A stretch of DNA of 64,000 bases from NCBI GenBank assembly GCA_903813345.2, contig CAIIXF020000001.1, positions 20,088,001 to 20,152,000 on the forward strand, given 5' to 3'. The notes beneath the pieces are model-generated. The model saw nothing but the letters and a program-made list of their open reading frames with translations, searched no databases and was not told the origin of the DNA. Each line of letters begins with the position of its first letter. The stretch's first letter is position 1. Below are positions 22,601 to 37,600 of the stretch, piece by piece. This DNA comes from Owenia fusiformis. Its lineage: Eukaryota. The position numbers were made by a program, and so were the translations under genes.

Positions 22601-25600
22601 ATTAAGGTAGGAGTAGCATGTCTAGCATCCTTGAACATCTTACACATAGCAGGGCCTGGGGGGGGGGCAAAATCTCTGCAAAATCTCTCAAAATCATGCA
22701 GTTTTTCACCATTCTGAGCACTTTTCAAGTGGTTTTGGGCCAAAGTTGTCAAATAGTAAACCCCCCTGGAATTCTTTGAAAAGTGAACCCCTTGGTAAAA
22801 AGCTAGCTGCAGGCCTGCATACCAGCTTCCATACTTATGCTGACAAAATGGTTCAAAATCATCTCACTAGACCCACCTTAAGAATGTTAAGGAAGCAAGC
22901 CGTAGATTTAGTATTGTTCCTCTAATAATCTGTCAGGTCATTACGGTAATGCACCCCACATCAATTATTTCATTGTTTTAATTAAAAGGGTAACAAATTT
23001 AAGAAAGGAAATAAGAGTAACTTTCTAAAAATAAATTACAAAATCAAGTTTAATTTCTAGAAAGTCCAGATTTTTTTAATTTCAATGATAATCCTTTGAT
23101 CTGGCAATACTTTTGATTCCCATTATTTTCCATTTTTTCATTTTGAATTACTGTACAATGAACTACTTCCTTATATGCATATGCTAAATACGTTTGGGAA
23201 TATGCACTTACCATGATATCAATAGACTCGTGGATCTTTTTACAGGTTGCAGAAAATGTCTCTGAAGTTCCAAACTCAAAGTACCATAACTTATTCTTCA
23301 TTCTGGAAGTATATAGGATCATACATTCTACAATGTATGTAACATTGTACAATTATGCACTCAGCCATTCTTCATTATGCACTCATACATTCTTTAATAT
23401 GCACTCGGACATTCTTCATTATGCACTCATACATTCTTTAACATGCACTCGTACATTCTGAAATGTATCATCATACATTCTACAATATGTTGCCATATTT
23501 TTACAGTATGCACTCATAGTTATCAGCTATTTGAAGCGCATTTCCTCCCACTGAAAGACAGCATATGCTATGATGGGAAAATATGATGGTTTACACACTT
23601 CAGTTCATCTTACAAAGACATATTAATATAAAATCACTTTTTGGATAATATTAATATCTATTGTTCAACTAATTTTCATCATCTTCACATAGCAAGTGAC
23701 ACATAACATACCAAATAACTATTTTTCAAATTGCTGATAAACTATGTCTCCTTATTCAGTTAAAAGAATGCAGGAAAATAAAATAGAGCCTGAACAACAA
23801 AGAAAATCCAGTTGTTTCTAAATTGCAGATTTTCTTGTCATTATTGTTTTAAAAATAATTTTATGTGATGATATTCCCCCATGGCATCATTCATTGGTGA
23901 TTCCCCTTTCTGTTCATTGCTAAAAATACTACATTTTTCTGTATAGTGTTATATTTAACTCATTTATCATTGATGCATGTAGAAATATCATTGAGGACCA
24001 CAGTAATAGTAGTACAATATTATATATGGGAGATTTAGTAGGCAATTAATTCTTAGTGACACATGACATGTAATACCATTGTCAACAAGTAGTATTCATG
24101 ACAATTTGATGTGTTGTTCAGACTCTATATATTAAAATATACGCCAACGCACTTACACATAAAGATTTCACTGGATATTATAGACGAATAGTACAGGAGA
24201 TCAACTTGATTCCCTCCATTATTACAGAATGAGGTTCACCGTAAATATATTCATTTTTTTAGTAAAGACTGTTATATTTATAGCAGTTATTCTTCAGGTG
24301 ATGCCACTTAGACCTTTATCACTCCACAGGTATATAGTAATCCTGAGATCTTTATGTGAGTGTTGGTATAAACAATTTATTTTAATCCACAAGTAAATAG
24401 ATAGAATGCGCAGAAAGAGACTTCGCTGTCACAAACATGGCACGTCGCAGCGCCAGCAGGCTAGTTGGTTAATGAAATGTTTGGAGGTTAATGATGCTTT
24501 TCAGTTTTGAGATATCATTACAAGAGCAATGTTGGGCCCAAAACAACAACTCAATTTATTATGCACAATGGGATCATAATACCTTGTCATGGAAAGCTTT
24601 GGGTGGACAGGATGTTTATACATATAATAATAGGGTAGGGATCATGCTAGTGCTACATGCTATTTCCATCACCAAAATATATAGGTGCAATAAAATTGTG
24701 CATGTAGAAATAACTAAATACTAGGTGGAATTAATAAATATTGTGCATTGTACAATGTCAGTGTGGGACAAATAATCTAGTGCCATATCAGTAAGAAAAA
24801 TTAGTATTAAGGAAAACCATAAAATCTGGCACAGTCATGTGAGTAAAATTCAAATATCTAAACCTAATATCTAACTGGTGACTTGTGTGCAGTTATAACA
24901 CCTACAGTATGCTGTGTAGGATTTATGTTTTTGTAGTTTTAGTAATATCCAGTACCAAAATAAAGAGAATACATAAGTACATTTGGGGGAAATAAGTAAC
25001 AGGTACAAAATCAGAAGCTATGGTTGGTTGACTATAACAACAAGCAGAAGATACCAATCATGCAATCACATAACATGTCAACAAATATTGGCACAATTAC
25101 AAAATTTCACAAAAAAAACGTCACATCAATGAACATCTTTAAAACAATAAAAGCAAACACAGAGGATTAATCCCATTTGACATGTGATTAAAGTAGCGTG
25201 AAACTGGGGTACATCCTCTATGTACAATTTACAACTTGAAACATAGCTTTAAGGAAGGCAGGGCAGAATGACCAATTTACCTAATGAGATGTACTAATGT
25301 CATATGTGCAGGTCAAAATCATTTCACACTGCCCACCTTAATCTTCCCAAAATTAACCCAAAACACAACACAGTCAACCAACCATCGTGTCCATTGTCCT
25401 CCCAAGCTTTTACAATGACAAGGTTTTACAAGAACCCCCTACTCTACCTGCTATTGAATTTCTCGGGATGTTTTTCCCGCATCATATGAAACCTATGTGC
25501 GATGGACGCGTCCTGCAGAATAGAACACAATATCATAAATACAAAGAAATAAAAAACCCAGGGTGGACAGGCATTTTGTAAACATTTACATTGTAACACT

Positions 25601-28600
25601 GGATGGGAATAAGCATAGGTTTGCCACCTTAGAGAGGAATTTACAAAAGCAATTCTGTAACAGTTCTGCAAAGGTAGGATTTGAATGCACCGTGGAGCTG
25701 TTATTGCAAGGATAGCCTACAAAAAGAGCATGCACACAATTTTAAAGCTTTTTACAGGGCAAAATACAGGGTGTTTTAAAAATATAATATGCATGTTTGA
25801 TCTCATATTTTTAGAACGCTGCAAATTGGTAAAGGGTACGCATGCAAAGAGAAATTCTCCAATCTTAGTTGGAGAAATTCACATGTAAAAGAAGAAACAC
25901 AAATATTCCATCACCGACCATGATTGTAAAACATGTTGTCATCATAGCTTTGCTTTTAAGCCAAGTAATGATTATGTCTGCTATTTAAGACATTTACCAA
26001 AACAAGTATATTTTGATTTCAGTTACAATTTTCCAAACACAATTTTTACCCTTCCAAATGTAATTCTTAAAAAACATATTGATGTCAAACTGAAAGGTTA
26101 TTGAACATTTAAAATGGAGAAATCTGTGAATTACTAATCACCATCATGATGATTATCTGGAGAAGATTGTTTATTCTCATGGGGTTCCTGAAGCCCACAT
26201 TTATTCTTAGCAGTTAGGCCAATATACAGAGTGGGCCAATAAAAATTGGAATGTGGATCCAATGAGGATAAAAAAGTTATGACCTGTGATTTTATTGTAT
26301 ATGTAATTTCTCAATACATGTTTATTTACGAATGAAATTCATTCTCCAAAGTCTTTGTAATGTTCTCTGCTCCATATAATGTACAAGTAACACTCTCCTG
26401 GGGTGGAGATAAGAAAGCTGCACATGCATACAAGACACCAGCAACATAACGTCTCAGCATTCGAGAGCAACTAAGACAAAACATAGAATAAGGGGTGGAA
26501 TGAAAGCTTGACATAAATACTGGAGACCAAAATGCCTGTTCCTGGGTAAACACAAACCTGCTGTCAAATTTATGTGGATATTTTTCTCGCATCAAATGAA
26601 ATTTGTGGGCTATTGACGCATCCTGGAATAGACTTTGTATATTAGTAGAAATTAAGGTTAAAAACATGATGAATTTCTAATCCAACAAACTTTAACAATG
26701 ATTATATAACTGTTAATGATTTGGACTACATACTGTATTGTGAACATCCTCTCCATGTATCTTGACCCAACCCAAAAATAAACATATTGTGAAAAAATGA
26801 ACACCCTTTTCAAAAACATTTGGGAAATATTCACATTCAACTGAACTAAAATGAAAGTAACAGCTTACCACCCCAATAGAGAAATAATTATTGATAATGT
26901 TACAAGGAACTGGATCCCCTTGTTCTACAGTATCTGGCGTACTAAACTCTATCTGCCAGCGATCCAGCTGGACTTGGTTACCACTCTTTATTCTGTGTAA
27001 ATATTTGTTCAGATTTTCTCCCTCATAACCTGGAAAAACACAATTGTTTTCAAAAAAGACATTTACATACTTAATTTTTCTTTTTTACTCACATTTTACT
27101 TGATTACATATAGTGCATGTGGTATATCGCATATTAAATATTTTCAAAGGATGCAATGTTTGAAGGATACTTGAACAACATTTTTTAAATTGCCCTCTAT
27201 TATGTAAATGTACAAATTGCATGCTGGCTTTGACTGTTAACAGTATATCAATAACTATTGTTTAAAATGACACATGCTATACATCAAAGAAAAGTGAGCA
27301 CTGTTTAAAATCTAGATGCACATGTGGCAAATGTTTGAGCCGGATAAAATCCCCATGTTCAATAAAATGTCACACTTACAATACAATACAATAAATGGTG
27401 AAATGAATGTTATGTGGCTGTAAATATTTACCTCCTCCCCAGTTGAGACATCGTGCCAGGTCATTACCCGTCCCAAGAGGTAGAACTGCCACTGGCGGAC
27501 GATTTACAAAGGTCACCTTATCTACAACATAATATAAATACTATTTATTCATGTTCATTGAAGAGCATGAAAATGAATCCCTCCATTCTTGACAGAAACA
27601 GAATAGGTAATAATGATATAGAGCTGATAATAGAAATGTATACTATTATTACTTATGCACTGCATTGTTCTTTATACTATTGATTCCTTTCAAAGCATGT
27701 TTCACTGGCTTTTGGTTTGATCATATTCAACTGCGTAGTTTCTTGTGTTAAACAATATCAAGAAGCAGCAGGGGATATCTAACTGCATGCCTATTAATCC
27801 CCCGCCTACTTAAATTACCCCCTTTCTACTCACCCATGGCTTCAAGTAACCACCCGACTGTTCCATCTCCTCCGCAAACAAGAATTCGGAAATTTGGCAC
27901 GTCTTTGAAAAACTGCAACCTAAAAATGTTACACTGTGGATGCAGTTTGTGTTATATTTTCATATTTTCAATGTAATATAAAGCATGAGTCTGCATAGCT
28001 TATAACTTCATACAATAAGTTATACAATGTAGTAATACTTGTAAATTCAGTAATGACTGTCTATAAAGTGCACACCTCCCTATAAAGTGCAAACCTCCAG
28101 ACAGACCTGCTCATGTTAAAAACTGACCCCTATAACATTAGTGCCAATAAATTCTGAACAAAGTGTTCTCACTTCAAGAAATTCAATTTAAAAGAACCAG
28201 GATATTGTGATTTTTGAGATATGCTTTTGTCCATGTGTGAGTATCAATATCTATGCATACACAGTTGAGTTCATAAATTTACAGTGTACATACACTTGGA
28301 ACAATGTTTTTAATGTTGGCAGTCAATGTACTGTATATTTAAATGTGTTAATTCGGAATAAAGAAAGGAGAAAATGAAGGTTAAACATACGCTGGTTGAG
28401 GTCCTCCATTTTTGATCAGATCATAAACCTGCCTTGGGTTGAGTAAATACTGAAACTTTCTTAATATCCTGAAATAAAATGCAATCAAACTTGAACACAA
28501 TACGAATGTGTATTTTGTAACATAGTTGCTGCATAAAAAGTGGGCAAAAAGGTAGGTAGATGATCATTTGACATTTTCAAGACATACAAGTTAACCATTT

Positions 28601-31600: not shown

Positions 31601-34600
31601 TTACAATAAAGCAGACATAATCATGGTCTCATGGTTATGCTTTAAATTCTGTTTGAGGACATTTTACATTTTTTCTTGTTGATCAGATGTATCATTACAT
31701 AGACATAGTATTCAATGGTAAGATTTGGAGTGTTTTTCTAACTATATGGTATAACACTATATAGTATAATAAAATATATAACATTATAATAATATAATAT
31801 AGTATAGTATAGTACAAGAAATAATGTTCCTTAATAAAGGACTTACATTTAAACCTTTCTTTGACTTTACATATGTGGTTATACAACAAGCAGGGGCTCT
31901 GTGGACACACCTCTCGTGTACTGTATATTTGCAAACTGAAAATAACACAATTTAGTAAACATACATACAGACGGATGGATGGATGCGCCTATGCCGACAA
32001 TAAGGCCCCACACTATGTGGTGGGGACATAACAAAAGGAGTAAGGCGTCTCTGATAAATCAGCATGATCTTCTCATCTATATGAATATTTTCAAGATCGA
32101 CAAAACCTCAGAAGAACTTATTTGTTTGACTTACATATGCAACTAAGGCCTTGTTTTCCTAGTCCCACTAGCATGTTAAGGCAGAGATTGCAGTAGGCAG
32201 GTTTGTTATAGTGTTTGAGACGCCAAGAGTGGGTCCCGTCATCTTTCACATTCTGAAGTATAGTGATTACTTAATAGTCTGGTTTATTATACTTATAGGT
32301 TAGAAGTTTAAGATATTGAAGTGTTTTACTTTAATTACAAAGAATATATATATAAGAAATGCTTCAAATAAAACAAATGAGTAAAATACACAATCTATCT
32401 TAATTTTATCAAATTTAACTTCATCACCTGGTAAGTTATTGTGAATGGTTACAAAAGTGTAACAATGTATTACAAACACCAAAAGCCAAATGTTATTTAC
32501 TGCCATTCATTATGAGACTGGTGGCTAAAACAAGGTCATTTCTTGGGTAAGGACAAATAGCTGCCCATGCCTATTGATAGTACATGTATAAGTTACATAT
32601 TAAAATATTTTAGAATTATTCAGGATGGGAATTACAGATGTTAAAGTTGTACATACTGTGTCTAGACCCAGTAGAACCAGGAGAGGTATTGTTGTAAGAC
32701 CTCCACGCTTCCATTCCTCCAGGGAAACAGTTCCATCTTCATCATAATCTATCTCACGCATCATGTCTTGTAATATCTGTAATAAGCTTATATGTTTCAA
32801 TAATGCCTTACACAATATTAGACAGCATTACATTCTTAGCAAAGCAATTATACTGGAGTCAGTCAAATTGATTCACATAATCCAACTAATAAACCGACAC
32901 TAGGCCAAACTTAAGGTTTGTTTACTCACAGGTTTAAGCTCGGAGACATCCCAACCAAGGTACTCTGCGACAGTCATCATTTGCTGCACAATACAATCCA
33001 GCTCCTAAACCATAATGCAACGCTCCTAATTAATATGGCATGACAAATAACATGCTATGACAATGATTATTACAGAGATAATCAATTAAAATCCAAGACT
33101 GAAGTGGTATAAACCTCTTCATTATTATATAAAGAATCGAGAGGATGTTTATCTAAGAAACACCTATTTTACGCATTTGAAACCTCTGAAATGTCCAAAT
33201 TGATGACAGGCATCAAAAACTGCATTATACAAGTATAAACTGGTTCTTAACATTAAAATTACAGTAGACTACAAATCAGGGAAGGCATCAAAAGACCAAT
33301 GTCTGATAGGAAAATAAATAAATCTAGTTTTGAGTTGGACCCCCCTCCCCAGCAAAACTAAATACAATGAAAGTTGATCGCGGACTTTTCACATGTTAAA
33401 CGACTCAATTTGGACTTTAATTGGGGCAGTACTATAACTTATTTATAATTCTTAAAACATGTGCCAACAACAACAGGCACAATATTCCATTGTTGCATGC
33501 ATCTTGGTGAAGAAGGCATCTGGTAAAGTCTTTATTTTTAAACCATTCCAAGGAATTTCCAGTCGAAATTGCAAAAAATTTAAATGTTGAAATTTGTCGG
33601 ATAGCAAACTGAAATAGCTTTGAACCCCTCCCCTCAAACTAGATTTATTTAGTTTTCTATCAGACATTGATCTTTTGATGCCTCCCCTTATAAAGGTACT
33701 TCTAATGGTACTTCTAGAAATATACAGAAATTATTCAAAAATAGAAATTCAACAAAAATAAAAACATTTTTCTTCACAACTATTCAAGTATATTGAGCCC
33801 ATATACCTTTCAAAGAGAACTATACCAATTCCAGAATGCTTTATCTACATCAATAATCTGCAAAAGGCTAATAAGCCCATTTAAAGCAGATATATTACAT
33901 TTGAGAATCAGATATTAAGCATGATGGGATTGGTTTGGGACCATTGCTACTTACACTACCCTCAAGTAGTAGATTGTCATCTGTATCATACAATCTAAAC
34001 ATGACTGAAAAACACATCAAAGAGAGGACAGTAAAATAAAGAGACAACCCAAAGGACAACATAAAATGAAAAATAAAATGAAGAAGAAACAAGTTGAATA
34101 CAAGAAAACAATACTTTGCAGCCCTCTCCACCCCACCAACTGAGTGACCAATCCAATACAGTGCATGTGCTGGACATGTACAGTAGAACCTGTATATCCG
34201 AACACCTTTCTAATCCAAACATCTCTCAACGTGAACACTTTATCTCATCTCCCATTGACTTACATATTGAGACACTTTGATATGTGAACACCTGCAAATG
34301 TGAACTTTTTTGGCCAGTCACAATGGTGTTCGGATTAGACAGGTTTTACTGTAATCACTGTAATAATTGGTGATTTAAACAGGTGTCATCAGTGGATGTA
34401 CATGTATTAGATACTTGTGCTGTTGAATTTAAAGGACTGCATTGCATCATGGGTACTACTGCACTATGGGATGGTTCTATCCTCCATTGAAAGGTGTGTT
34501 GCCTACTCTACAGAGAAAATAGTACGTAGGTTATAGTCATAAGCAAGTATCCATAACACAATACAAAGCCCCTTAGCAATTTCCTCGAATCAAGAAATAA

Positions 34601-37600
34601 CTAAAACAAGATCTAGCAAGACTCATTGTGACAGGAAATACGAATCATCAAAAGTAAAATTGAACATTTCGGACAAAATTGATTTTGGAAAGATTTATGG
34701 AGTCAAAGTGTGTGCTATGAATCACTAAAAATGGCTATAACCTTACATCTTCAGTCTCTTATTATACATCTATTGTCAGTTTTATCACAATTTCTGAGGT
34801 TGTTTAATCATACAAATGACACACCATCAGAAACACATAAAATGTTTCAATAAGAAAACTAAGATAAGTGACTAAATGCATGCAATATATAGAGTTCTGG
34901 ATCTCACATAACTACATACTATGGAGAAGTACTACAAAATAAAATGTATCTACCCACGCCATGCAATACTGAAAATGCTAGATACAAGTTATCTCAATTA
35001 ACAATAAGGTTGTTCCATTCATTTTGCTGTATTTAAAATGCATGGCTAGAGTATTTTAGTGAAAGGGGCAATATAATCATTGCCCTACCCTAACAAATAC
35101 ATGGAGATGGTACAAGGTCAGAGCAAGGAAAACGTTCCTGATATATCGAAATTAACCACTATTATTCAGAAAGACAGTGTTTCACTCAGTGTTTTTACTT
35201 GGGTAAAATTTTAGAGCTGTGGTTGTGAAAATGGATATGTTTATATACAAAATAGAATCTGTATTTAAACTTTATTTATGAGGGTAGTAACAAAAGCAAC
35301 ACCTACAAAAGACAACATCTAGGTATCTTTATTTGCATATTCATTGTTTATTTGGTTATCGATGCATTGCATTTAATGACTAATATACAAATAGAGAACA
35401 GTCAGAATGAAACTAGTTGTCACAATGTTACCATAGTGATAGCATTTGTCACCATGGTTACTTACATCTGTATCTAGAATACCGTTGCCATCGGCATCAT
35501 ATAATCTGAACATGACTACAATAGAAATGGAATACACAAAAGTTTTAACTCTCTTCAAATGCGTAAATAGTAAATCAAATGTTATATTGACTAAAATCTT
35601 ATGACTTTAATTGGTCAGTAATTCACACACACTTGTAAGCTGCACCTAGACTAAAATACATATACTCGTACATCCCAAACAATAATGATTTGGGGTCCCG
35701 GCATGTTGTAACGCTATAATTGATGATTCGAGTCCTTTCAATAATCTTCTATTGCATCCATGTTATCCTGGAATTGATAAGTTTGGGTCCAAAATGACCT
35801 GAAGTTGAAGACCTGCATATTGGTAATGAAAGCCCTTTCAGGAAAATGAGGAATGCATACATGTAAAGCATACAAAGTAATATAAATATGGTAACGAGAG
35901 TATAAAAAATCTTATCAAAACTATTCCAAATCTATGCACAAACATTGAATCAGTGATCTCCCCAACATTAACTTGAGAATTTTGAAAATAGGCTTGCACC
36001 CACTTGAAAACAAAAACATTTTCCCTTTTGCAAATGAGAAAATCATAAAAAATCTGTATACTTTGACCAATTTAGTATTAAACTGTATGAGAATTTTACA
36101 CTGATAAAACCCGTTGAGCACACTCCATCTAGGTTTTATATCAATTCAGACTTAATTCACATTTGACCACAAAAGATTAAATGTACTTTTACTTCTTAAT
36201 ATTCCTATATACAACATCCATTACTACTTACATTCTAATTTATCCTCTGGTCTCCCAGCCTCCAATAACGAGAGGTAACATACTAAATCCTTTAGATAGA
36301 TACTGCCATTTTTTATGTCTAAGCTATTCCGACGTTTTATATCATTGGTATTCAGTAGAGAAGACTTGGACTGGCGGATCCACGGATCACTGCTATCTAT
36401 AACACAGAAAATAAAATGAGTAAAAAACAAATCGATTTTACATGAGATGAAATTTTATTATCGATCAGTCAATATCAATGAAACATATACATGAGTTAGC
36501 AATAACAACATGACATATGAATAAAGTTATATATTTGATAAATGTTTATTTAAAAAATAACAATTTTTCACAATTATTTCTGCCAAAACATATAATTTAC
36601 AAATGTCCAACACAGACAATACAAAAACAGAAGCATATAATACATCATATCATACCAGCATACAACACGCTACACTTGCACCATACAGAACAAATTTGAT
36701 TCCAAATTGGAAATATTACGCATGTACCAGTACTGATAAATATATGTGCAGTAAAACGTGGATTAGTTAAAGGGCTTATAGCTGTTATTTTAATCCTAAA
36801 TAACCCAAAAATATTTTTAATTCATAATGATGTGTAACTTACACAATCGATAGACTTGGGATTAAACTAATTCTTCTTTGTAATTACTGAAGCTTGAAAA
36901 AAATCATTCATGTAGAAAGTGAATTAATTGTTCTTAATAACTTTAAAGGTGCAAGCAGTCCAATGTAGAAAGTGAATTAATTGTTCTTAATAACTTAAAA
37001 GGTGCGAGCAGTCCAATGTAGGAAGTGGATTAATTGTTCTTAACTTAAGGTGCAAGCAGTCCAATCTTGATCTAGTCATACTGGTGACTTGGTGAGGATT
37101 TTTCTCAAGCCTTGATATTTTCAAAAACTTTATGTTCAAGTCTATTGATTCTACAAGTATAAGTTACATATAATTCTGAATTCGAAATATTTCACAGTTA
37201 TACCATGGTCACATTTGCTCTGGTACTGGCACCCGACCGATGAGTATTTTGTTCAAAATTACATTCAGTTTTGAACAAAATACTCATCGACCTGGCTCCA
37301 GTGTTGAAGATAGGGGCAAATGTGACCACAGCATTATTTAGGCTGAAAGTTACATCTCTTATAGCCATTTAATAGCTGTTTGCAATTGCAGTTTCTATGA
37401 GATTGTTTCCCTGGGTATGAACCAGTCAATCTCACGGTCCTACCTACAATTTTCACTTGGATCATATGTGTATGTGTTGAATACACGTTTTACTGCAATA
37501 TATGACAGCCCCATGTGGCAGTACATTATATGTATTCTGAAATTCCTCATTTATAAGTATAAGCAATATGCAACTACAGTACATTAGTCATATACTACTC

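Follow-up and report, generated by a model that had tools for sequence, protein, structure and literature searches.

Does an annelid diacylglycerol kinase (DGK) gene choose by splicing between two forms of its first Ca2+-binding site, and which of the two does it normally make? The question is raised by a 64,000-nt stretch of Owenia fusiformis DNA (the window; all coordinates are positions within it), whose minus strand carries two 50-nt versions, here called exons A and B, of the exon coding for the entering helix and most of the loop of EF-hand 1. Type I DGKs connect Ca2+ signals to the balance between diacylglycerol and phosphatidic acid, and the role of their EF-hands in mammals is still under study. 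We found that exon A encodes a canonical EF-hand loop and exon B a degenerate one, that the reading frame tolerates exactly one of the two, and that the degenerate copy is the one present in the RNA examined.

Anatomy and reading frame of the exon pair

The constitutive exon upstream of the pair (36232-36397) encodes the end of the recoverin-homology region. Its translation retrieved, at 100% identity, an 839-residue protein (P0003) that both NCBI and UniRef name as a diacylglycerol kinase of the annelid Owenia fusiformis, and tblastn placed residues 158-212 of this protein on the exon at 100% identity. The exon ends at 36232 with GAT AAA TTA GAA T followed by GTAAGT (a donor consisting of T followed by GTAAGTAGTAATGG) and leaves one base of a split codon. 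Exon A (35466-35515, 50 nt) supplies the entering helix of EF-hand 1 and loop positions 1-11, is bordered by ATTGTAG on the acceptor side and GTAAGT at the donor, and is absent from P0003. An intron of 1461 nt with GT and AG ends (34005-35465) separates it from its paralogue, exon B (33955-34004, 50 nt), which is bordered by TTTTTCAG on the acceptor side and again by GTAAGT, and which encodes residues 214-229 of P0003 at 100% identity. The downstream constitutive exon (32930-33004, 75 nt; limits set by the RNA joints 33004/33955 and 32930/32776) opens with GAG, the Glu of loop position 12; the rest of it codes for the exiting helix and the linker. It is followed by the EF-hand 2 exon (32657-32776), which has a canonical loop recognized by Pfam EF-hand_1 at P0003 residues 256-278.

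Exons A and B are identical at 32 of 50 bases and 10 of 17 residues, and a six-frame motif scan of the 64-kb window returned these two copies alone. When the exons were joined by script, the frame stayed open through the next two exons with A alone or with B alone. Joining A to B brought in a stop at codon 97 (numbered from where the upstream exon begins), and with both skipped a stop fell at the junction itself. A length of 50 nt does not divide by 3, so only an mRNA with exactly one copy would be productive. Tandem paralogy, equal length, equal phase, and loss of the frame with both or neither are the structural marks of a mutually exclusive exon pair, and these two exons carry all of them. 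The initial annotation had described two paralogous 50-nt exons of the same phase, a frame broken by including both or neither, and translations of the two loops that took their last Glu from the next exon. Direct reading of the borders (AG before each exon, GTAAGT after it) and the premature stops in the joined-exon translations bear out the first two points, and the loop translations were reproduced exactly.

The donors of the upstream exon (36218-36232), exon A (35452-35466) and exon B (33941-33955) have in common an extended motif, T followed by GTAAGTAnnnATGG, that reaches beyond the usual consensus and may be either residual homology or a common splicing element.

The gene belongs to the type I DGKs, a class defined by an N-terminal recoverin-homology domain, two EF-hands, two C1 domains, and catalytic and accessory domains. 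Pfam recognized DAG_kinase_N (131.6 bits), EF-hand_7 (32.8), two stretches of C1_1, DAGK_cat (103.7) and DAGK_acc (181.7) in P0003, an architecture that contains every element of the class, including the EF-hand pair, and agrees with the type I assignment made earlier. The best PDB matches of P0003, 6iie and 1tuz, are both DGKα, and its EF-hand region aligned with the solved human DGKα EF-hand domain 6iie at E = 1e-36. On the minus strand, the exons of P0003 span 48920 to 19612 with a 100% match (tblastn). A motif search of the window for residues 1-22, the first coding exon, gave no match; this exon may sit outside the window (beyond 48920) or be split.

The accessory domain of the same gene contains another pair of paralogous exons in tandem (26558-26622 and 25448-25512, minus strand). 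Both members are 65 nt long, which is again not a multiple of 3, and have AG and GT borders. The downstream copy (25448-25512) is canonical and present in P0003, and the upstream copy (26558-26622) occurs in no protein examined.

Exon B is the copy in the RNA examined

We mapped three raw RNA-seq runs of one study (X14, X15 and X16, all with the same species label) on positions 32500-36500, taking about 11-12.7 million reads, or 6-12%, of each run and counting joints as listed only at 3 or more reads. Contigs came from a run of a separate study (X9). The joint from the upstream exon to B (36232>34004) was covered by 0, 0 and 7 reads in X14, X15 and X16, and the joint from B to the downstream exon (33955>33004) by 3, 2 and 4 reads, alongside 4, 2 and 3 reads for the constitutive neighbor (32930>32776). 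All three joints also occur in an X9 contig of 1327 nt, which runs through 36397-36232, 34004-33954, 33003-32930 and 32776-32657, that is, through the upstream exon, exon B, the downstream exon and the EF-hand 2 exon. The exon B junction reads of the three runs total 16, to which this spliced contig adds one. By our own arithmetic, the depth per exon base in X14, X15 and X16 was equal for B (4.8, 1.0 and 8.5) and the upstream exon (4.05, 1.33 and 8.07). In the RNA examined, B is in essentially all transcripts and A is in none.

These data both support and revise what had been proposed for the pair. That exon B is spliced in was confirmed by its two joints, the X9 contig and P0003. The initial annotation had implied that the canonical exon is the default, and we found the reverse: in the RNA and in P0003, the default isoform carries the degenerate loop B. 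Of the proposal that the exons are used in a mutually exclusive manner, the frame incompatibility and the presence of B alone in mRNA stood up, but no spliced read of the three sampled runs contained A; among the four joints that would mark the choice, 36232>34004 and 33955>33004 were present, whereas 36232>35515 and 35466>33004 were not among the joints listed at 3 or more reads. We infer, rather than observe, mutually exclusive splicing, because no spliced read holds exon A. A few unspliced reads from X15 and X16 fell in the intron between A and B.

Four intronic segments nearby (33275-33691, 33843-33895, 34325-34358 and 35979-36010) showed high RNA-seq depth on both strands, with many variant letters and loose ends, and one of them is bounded by 56-nt inverted repeats (33275-33330 and 33636-33691) that are 91% complementary. 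These segments look like dispersed repeats transcribed at other loci.

Loop chemistry and ancestry of the two copies

We called a loop canonical if it had oxygen ligands at positions 1, 3, 5, 9 and 12, Gly at position 6 and a hydrophobic residue at position 8. The loop of exon A, completed by the Glu of the next exon, is canonical in this sense. The open reading frame (ORF) through exon A matched Pfam EF-hand_1 with 17 bits (E = 0.004), which is below the cut-off of 25.4 because the ORF contains only half the hand; the ORF of exon B had no Pfam match. Loop B has Leu at position 6, Glu in place of Asp at position 9, and an unusual run of three leucines at positions 6-8. In P0003, the Pfam models EF-hand_1, EF-hand_5 and EF-hand_6 match residues 256-278 (EF-hand 2) only, whereas in the Capitella and Lottia orthologues the single-hand models do match EF-hand 1. 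The earlier description of loop B as lacking Gly6 and altered at position 9 is therefore correct. An AlphaFold2 model of P0003 built from 31 aligned sequences was uninformative on this point (mean predicted local distance difference test score 51.8, with both EF-hand loops below about 50). In the alignment of 31 DGKs, the invariant ligand columns are D219, D221, N223 and E230, and human DGKα, the only vertebrate paralogue compared, retains Gly6 in EF-hand 1 (6iie alignment).

DGKα is reported to bind two Ca2+ ions with a Kd of about 300 nM, and Ca2+ to break an autoinhibitory contact between the EF-hands and the C1 domains (PMC4050180). For the default Owenia enzyme, the likeliest consequence is that Ca2+ binding by its first hand would be weakened or altered.

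We next compared both loops with DGKs of other animals. Sequences were drawn from a protein search (56 matches), from the membership of ten 90% clusters rich in annotated isoforms, and from a region search with P0003 residues 196-262 (the best 120 of 1274 matches), and covered molluscs, a brachiopod, the annelids Capitella and Paralvinella, a nemertean, arthropods, echinoderms and hemichordates. The nearest relative in the protein search was only about 70% identical over the upstream exon. The EF-hand 1 motif was matched 185 times in the 213 collected sequences, with Gly6 in 184 cases and Leu6 only in P0003; likewise, all members of the ten clusters have Gly6 except Owenia. Among 39 unique orthologue segments, 16 of the 17 residues of exon A recur (the exception is the last residue), and A keeps all seven invariant positions. 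Exon B keeps five of the seven, and its Leu6, Glu9 and Gly10 are unseen in these segments. Because the residues of A are orthologue-like and three of those of B recur in none of the segments compared, A is the ancestral exon and B a derived copy, apparently specific to this lineage.

Conservation of exon B in related genomes had been suggested as a check, and here the result was negative, with a B-type loop in 0 of the 184 other DGK loops examined. The accompanying idea, that one invertebrate gene could mimic the differences between the vertebrate α, β and γ paralogues, likewise gains no support as a general statement about invertebrates, as B is confined to Owenia among these loops. The exon pair is so far a feature of a single species. 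A DGK gene model of Magallana gigas (P0132), which scored above the rest in the region search, was considered as a second B-type loop and rejected, for what is duplicated there is the upstream exon. The P0132 protein carries the exon upstream of EF-hand 1 twice, which suggests an error in the gene model or else a local duplication.

Has exon A been maintained? Where A and B encode the same residue (ten codons), 4 of 9 degenerate third positions differ. Upstream of the exons, stretches of 60 and 200 bases are no more alike between A and B than shuffles are (z = −0.3 and 0.2), and the introns after the donors are alike only in their first 25 or so bases (z = 3.4 for 60 bases). The duplication is thus old, because synonymous sites have diverged and the upstream flanks retain no residual similarity. 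In exon A the frame is open, the invariant EF-hand residues are all present, the acceptor is usable and the donor is a perfect GTAAGT, a combination hardly to be expected after neutral drift of that length. Given an old duplication and an intact A, this exon should either still be used somewhere or have been silenced recently; its state of preservation makes continued use the probable answer and recent silencing a rather unlikely one.

Explanations and known systems

We lean, with a little more confidence than doubt, toward an old tandem duplication in which B has become the default and A has been kept by selection for restricted use. In this scenario, a 50-nt exon for the entering helix of EF-hand 1 and loop positions 1-11 would have undergone tandem duplication among the ancestors of Owenia fusiformis. 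The derived copy would have become the default choice and would make the main protein, in which Leu6, replacing the bend-forming Gly6, together with Glu9 would most likely weaken or alter Ca2+ binding while the side-chain ligands are kept. Such a change in EF-hand 1 would in turn modify how Ca2+ frees the EF-hands from the C1 domains. Selection would keep the ancestral, canonical A intact, and A would probably take the place of B at some limited stage or in some limited cell type, giving a second isoform with orthologue-like Ca2+ sensing.

What weighs against this reading concerns the mechanism of choice, the RNA, the comparison set and the chemistry of loop B. Among the devices considered that could enforce exclusivity (a short intron with a distant branch point, incompatible spliceosomes, and docking/selector RNA pairing), none was found from the 1461-nt intron, the GT-AG ends of all sites, and the pairing scans. 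The short-intron device does not apply because the intron is 1461 nt long and all sites are GT-AG. Inverted repeats do occur at the donor of exon B (33944-33964 with 35279-35299) and at the acceptor of exon A (35509-35526 with 35747-35764, part of the minimum-energy fold). However, neither complementary pair is distinguishable from background: a duplex scan ranked the splice-site duplexes at 0.10-0.76 among 152 background windows, and the local RNA fold of 35790-35480 had z = −0.84. We therefore rejected docking/selector pairing as unsupported, and it remains only a lead. With an intron of this length, it would be left to the reading frame and mRNA surveillance, or to other factors, to keep the two exons exclusive.

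The RNA itself raises the possibility that B took over fully and that A is a silent relic yet to decay, so that there is no alternative splicing at all. Exon A had no spliced read in the three sampled runs or the X9 contig, with joints listed at 3 or more reads, and 0 of the 16 reads at the two exon-choice joints contain it. Its bin depth was 0, 0.42 and 0 in X14, X15 and X16, and the 0.42, together with 0.71 in the adjoining intronic bin, amounts by our own arithmetic to one unspliced 151-nt read. Replacement also fits the equality of the B and constitutive joint counts, the presence of B in the sole annotated protein and the sole spliced contig, and the somewhat stronger look of the B acceptor (a T-run and CAG, 0.8 pyrimidines in the last 20 bases) relative to that of A (TAG, 0.7). 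We nonetheless consider it unlikely. Exon A keeps its seven invariant residues, open frame and consensus splice signals despite strong divergence at synonymous sites and in the flanks, and neutrality fits this only if A was silenced recently. The sampling is also thin, consisting of three runs of one study and one contig set with joints below 3 reads unlisted, and by our own estimate 16 junction reads are compatible with a share of A of up to roughly 17%. The comparison set holds no other oweniid, which puts the age of the duplication and selection on B outside its reach.

The chemistry of loop B admits a different account, in which both exons are used and loop B still binds Ca2+, so that the switch alters affinity, kinetics, Mg2+/Ca2+ selectivity or the surface between the EF-hands and the C1 domains. 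Exon B keeps Asp1, Asp3, Asn5, Leu8 and the shared Glu12, all of them invariant columns in the 31 aligned DGKs, and its Glu9 is still acidic; that the ligands were kept after long divergence suggests constraint. Moreover, EF-hand 1 of NOX5, which has no Gly6, is reported to bind Ca2+ (PMC7317449). Because hands without Gly6 can bind Ca2+ and the ligand positions of B are intact, the functional difference between A and B may be small or of another kind. On the other hand, Gly6 is invariant in the 39 unique orthologue segments and is reported to be critical for high-affinity binding by EF-hands (PMC5983762), the leucines at positions 6-8 are out of the ordinary, and the Pfam single-hand models miss the loop, and we regard this account as unlikely. 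By comparison, it is scarcely credible that the resemblance arose by chance or that B is an annotation artefact and not a real exon, as this is refuted by spliced RNA: reads on both sides of B and the contig are independent data, and the 32 of 50 shared bases belong to a motif with only two copies in 64 kb.

If an old duplication with B as default and A in restricted use is the right explanation, the two isoforms, which would differ only in seven residues of EF-hand 1, would form a clean system for the contribution of that hand, and the gene would add one more independent exon duplication that toggles a Ca2+ site.

The closest known parallel is ACTN1, in which exons 19a and 19b encode EF-hand 1 and give a Ca2+-binding and a Ca2+-insensitive isoform, chosen in a tissue-specific manner (PMC4435478, citing Waites et al. 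1992). As in the Owenia gene, the exon pair lies in EF-hand 1, but α-actinin belongs to another protein family, and its EF-hand splicing is described as confined to chordates (PMC9177970). A brain isoform of actinin contains both exons in frame, which the frame of the Owenia DGK forbids, and the actinin isoforms differ in their Ca2+ response, whereas the Owenia pair is known from sequence and from RNA in which B alone is used. CACNA1A, which encodes the P/Q-type Ca2+ channel and has an EF-hand-like exon pair, and OGDH (exons 4a/4b) are further reported cases of exon duplication, subfunctionalization and a Ca2+-sensing switch (PMC9177970, PMC7969005). They resemble the Owenia DGK in having the duplicated exon within a Ca2+-sensing element; however, short introns with distant branch points are reported to enforce exclusivity there, as also in actinin and tropomyosin (PMC9177970), in contrast to the 1461-nt intron of Owenia. 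Our literature search, which left supplementary tables such as those of PMC9177970 outside its range, returned no report of an EF-hand exon switch in a DGK. The Owenia case would thus bring a new gene family and a new phylum to this kind of switch and, unusually, its default copy is the degenerate one.

Finally, the vertebrate α, β and γ DGKs share their domain architecture with the Owenia enzyme. In human DGK genes an intron is reported to split the EF-hand loop near its C-terminal end (PMC9177970), in agreement with the Owenia intron after loop position 11. The three vertebrate paralogues are reported to differ in their response to Ca2+ (PMC4050180), and vertebrates diversified by gene duplication, whereas any such diversity in the Owenia DGK would come from exon duplication. 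It is a tentative proposal, to which we give less than even credence, that Owenia independently evolved an EF-hand exon switch in the style of α-actinin with its polarity reversed, so that the weak or insensitive form is the default and the ancestral Ca2+-sensing form is made only in certain cells or at certain stages; with the 65-nt pair added, up to four isoforms of one gene might then stand in for the diversity of the vertebrate paralogues.

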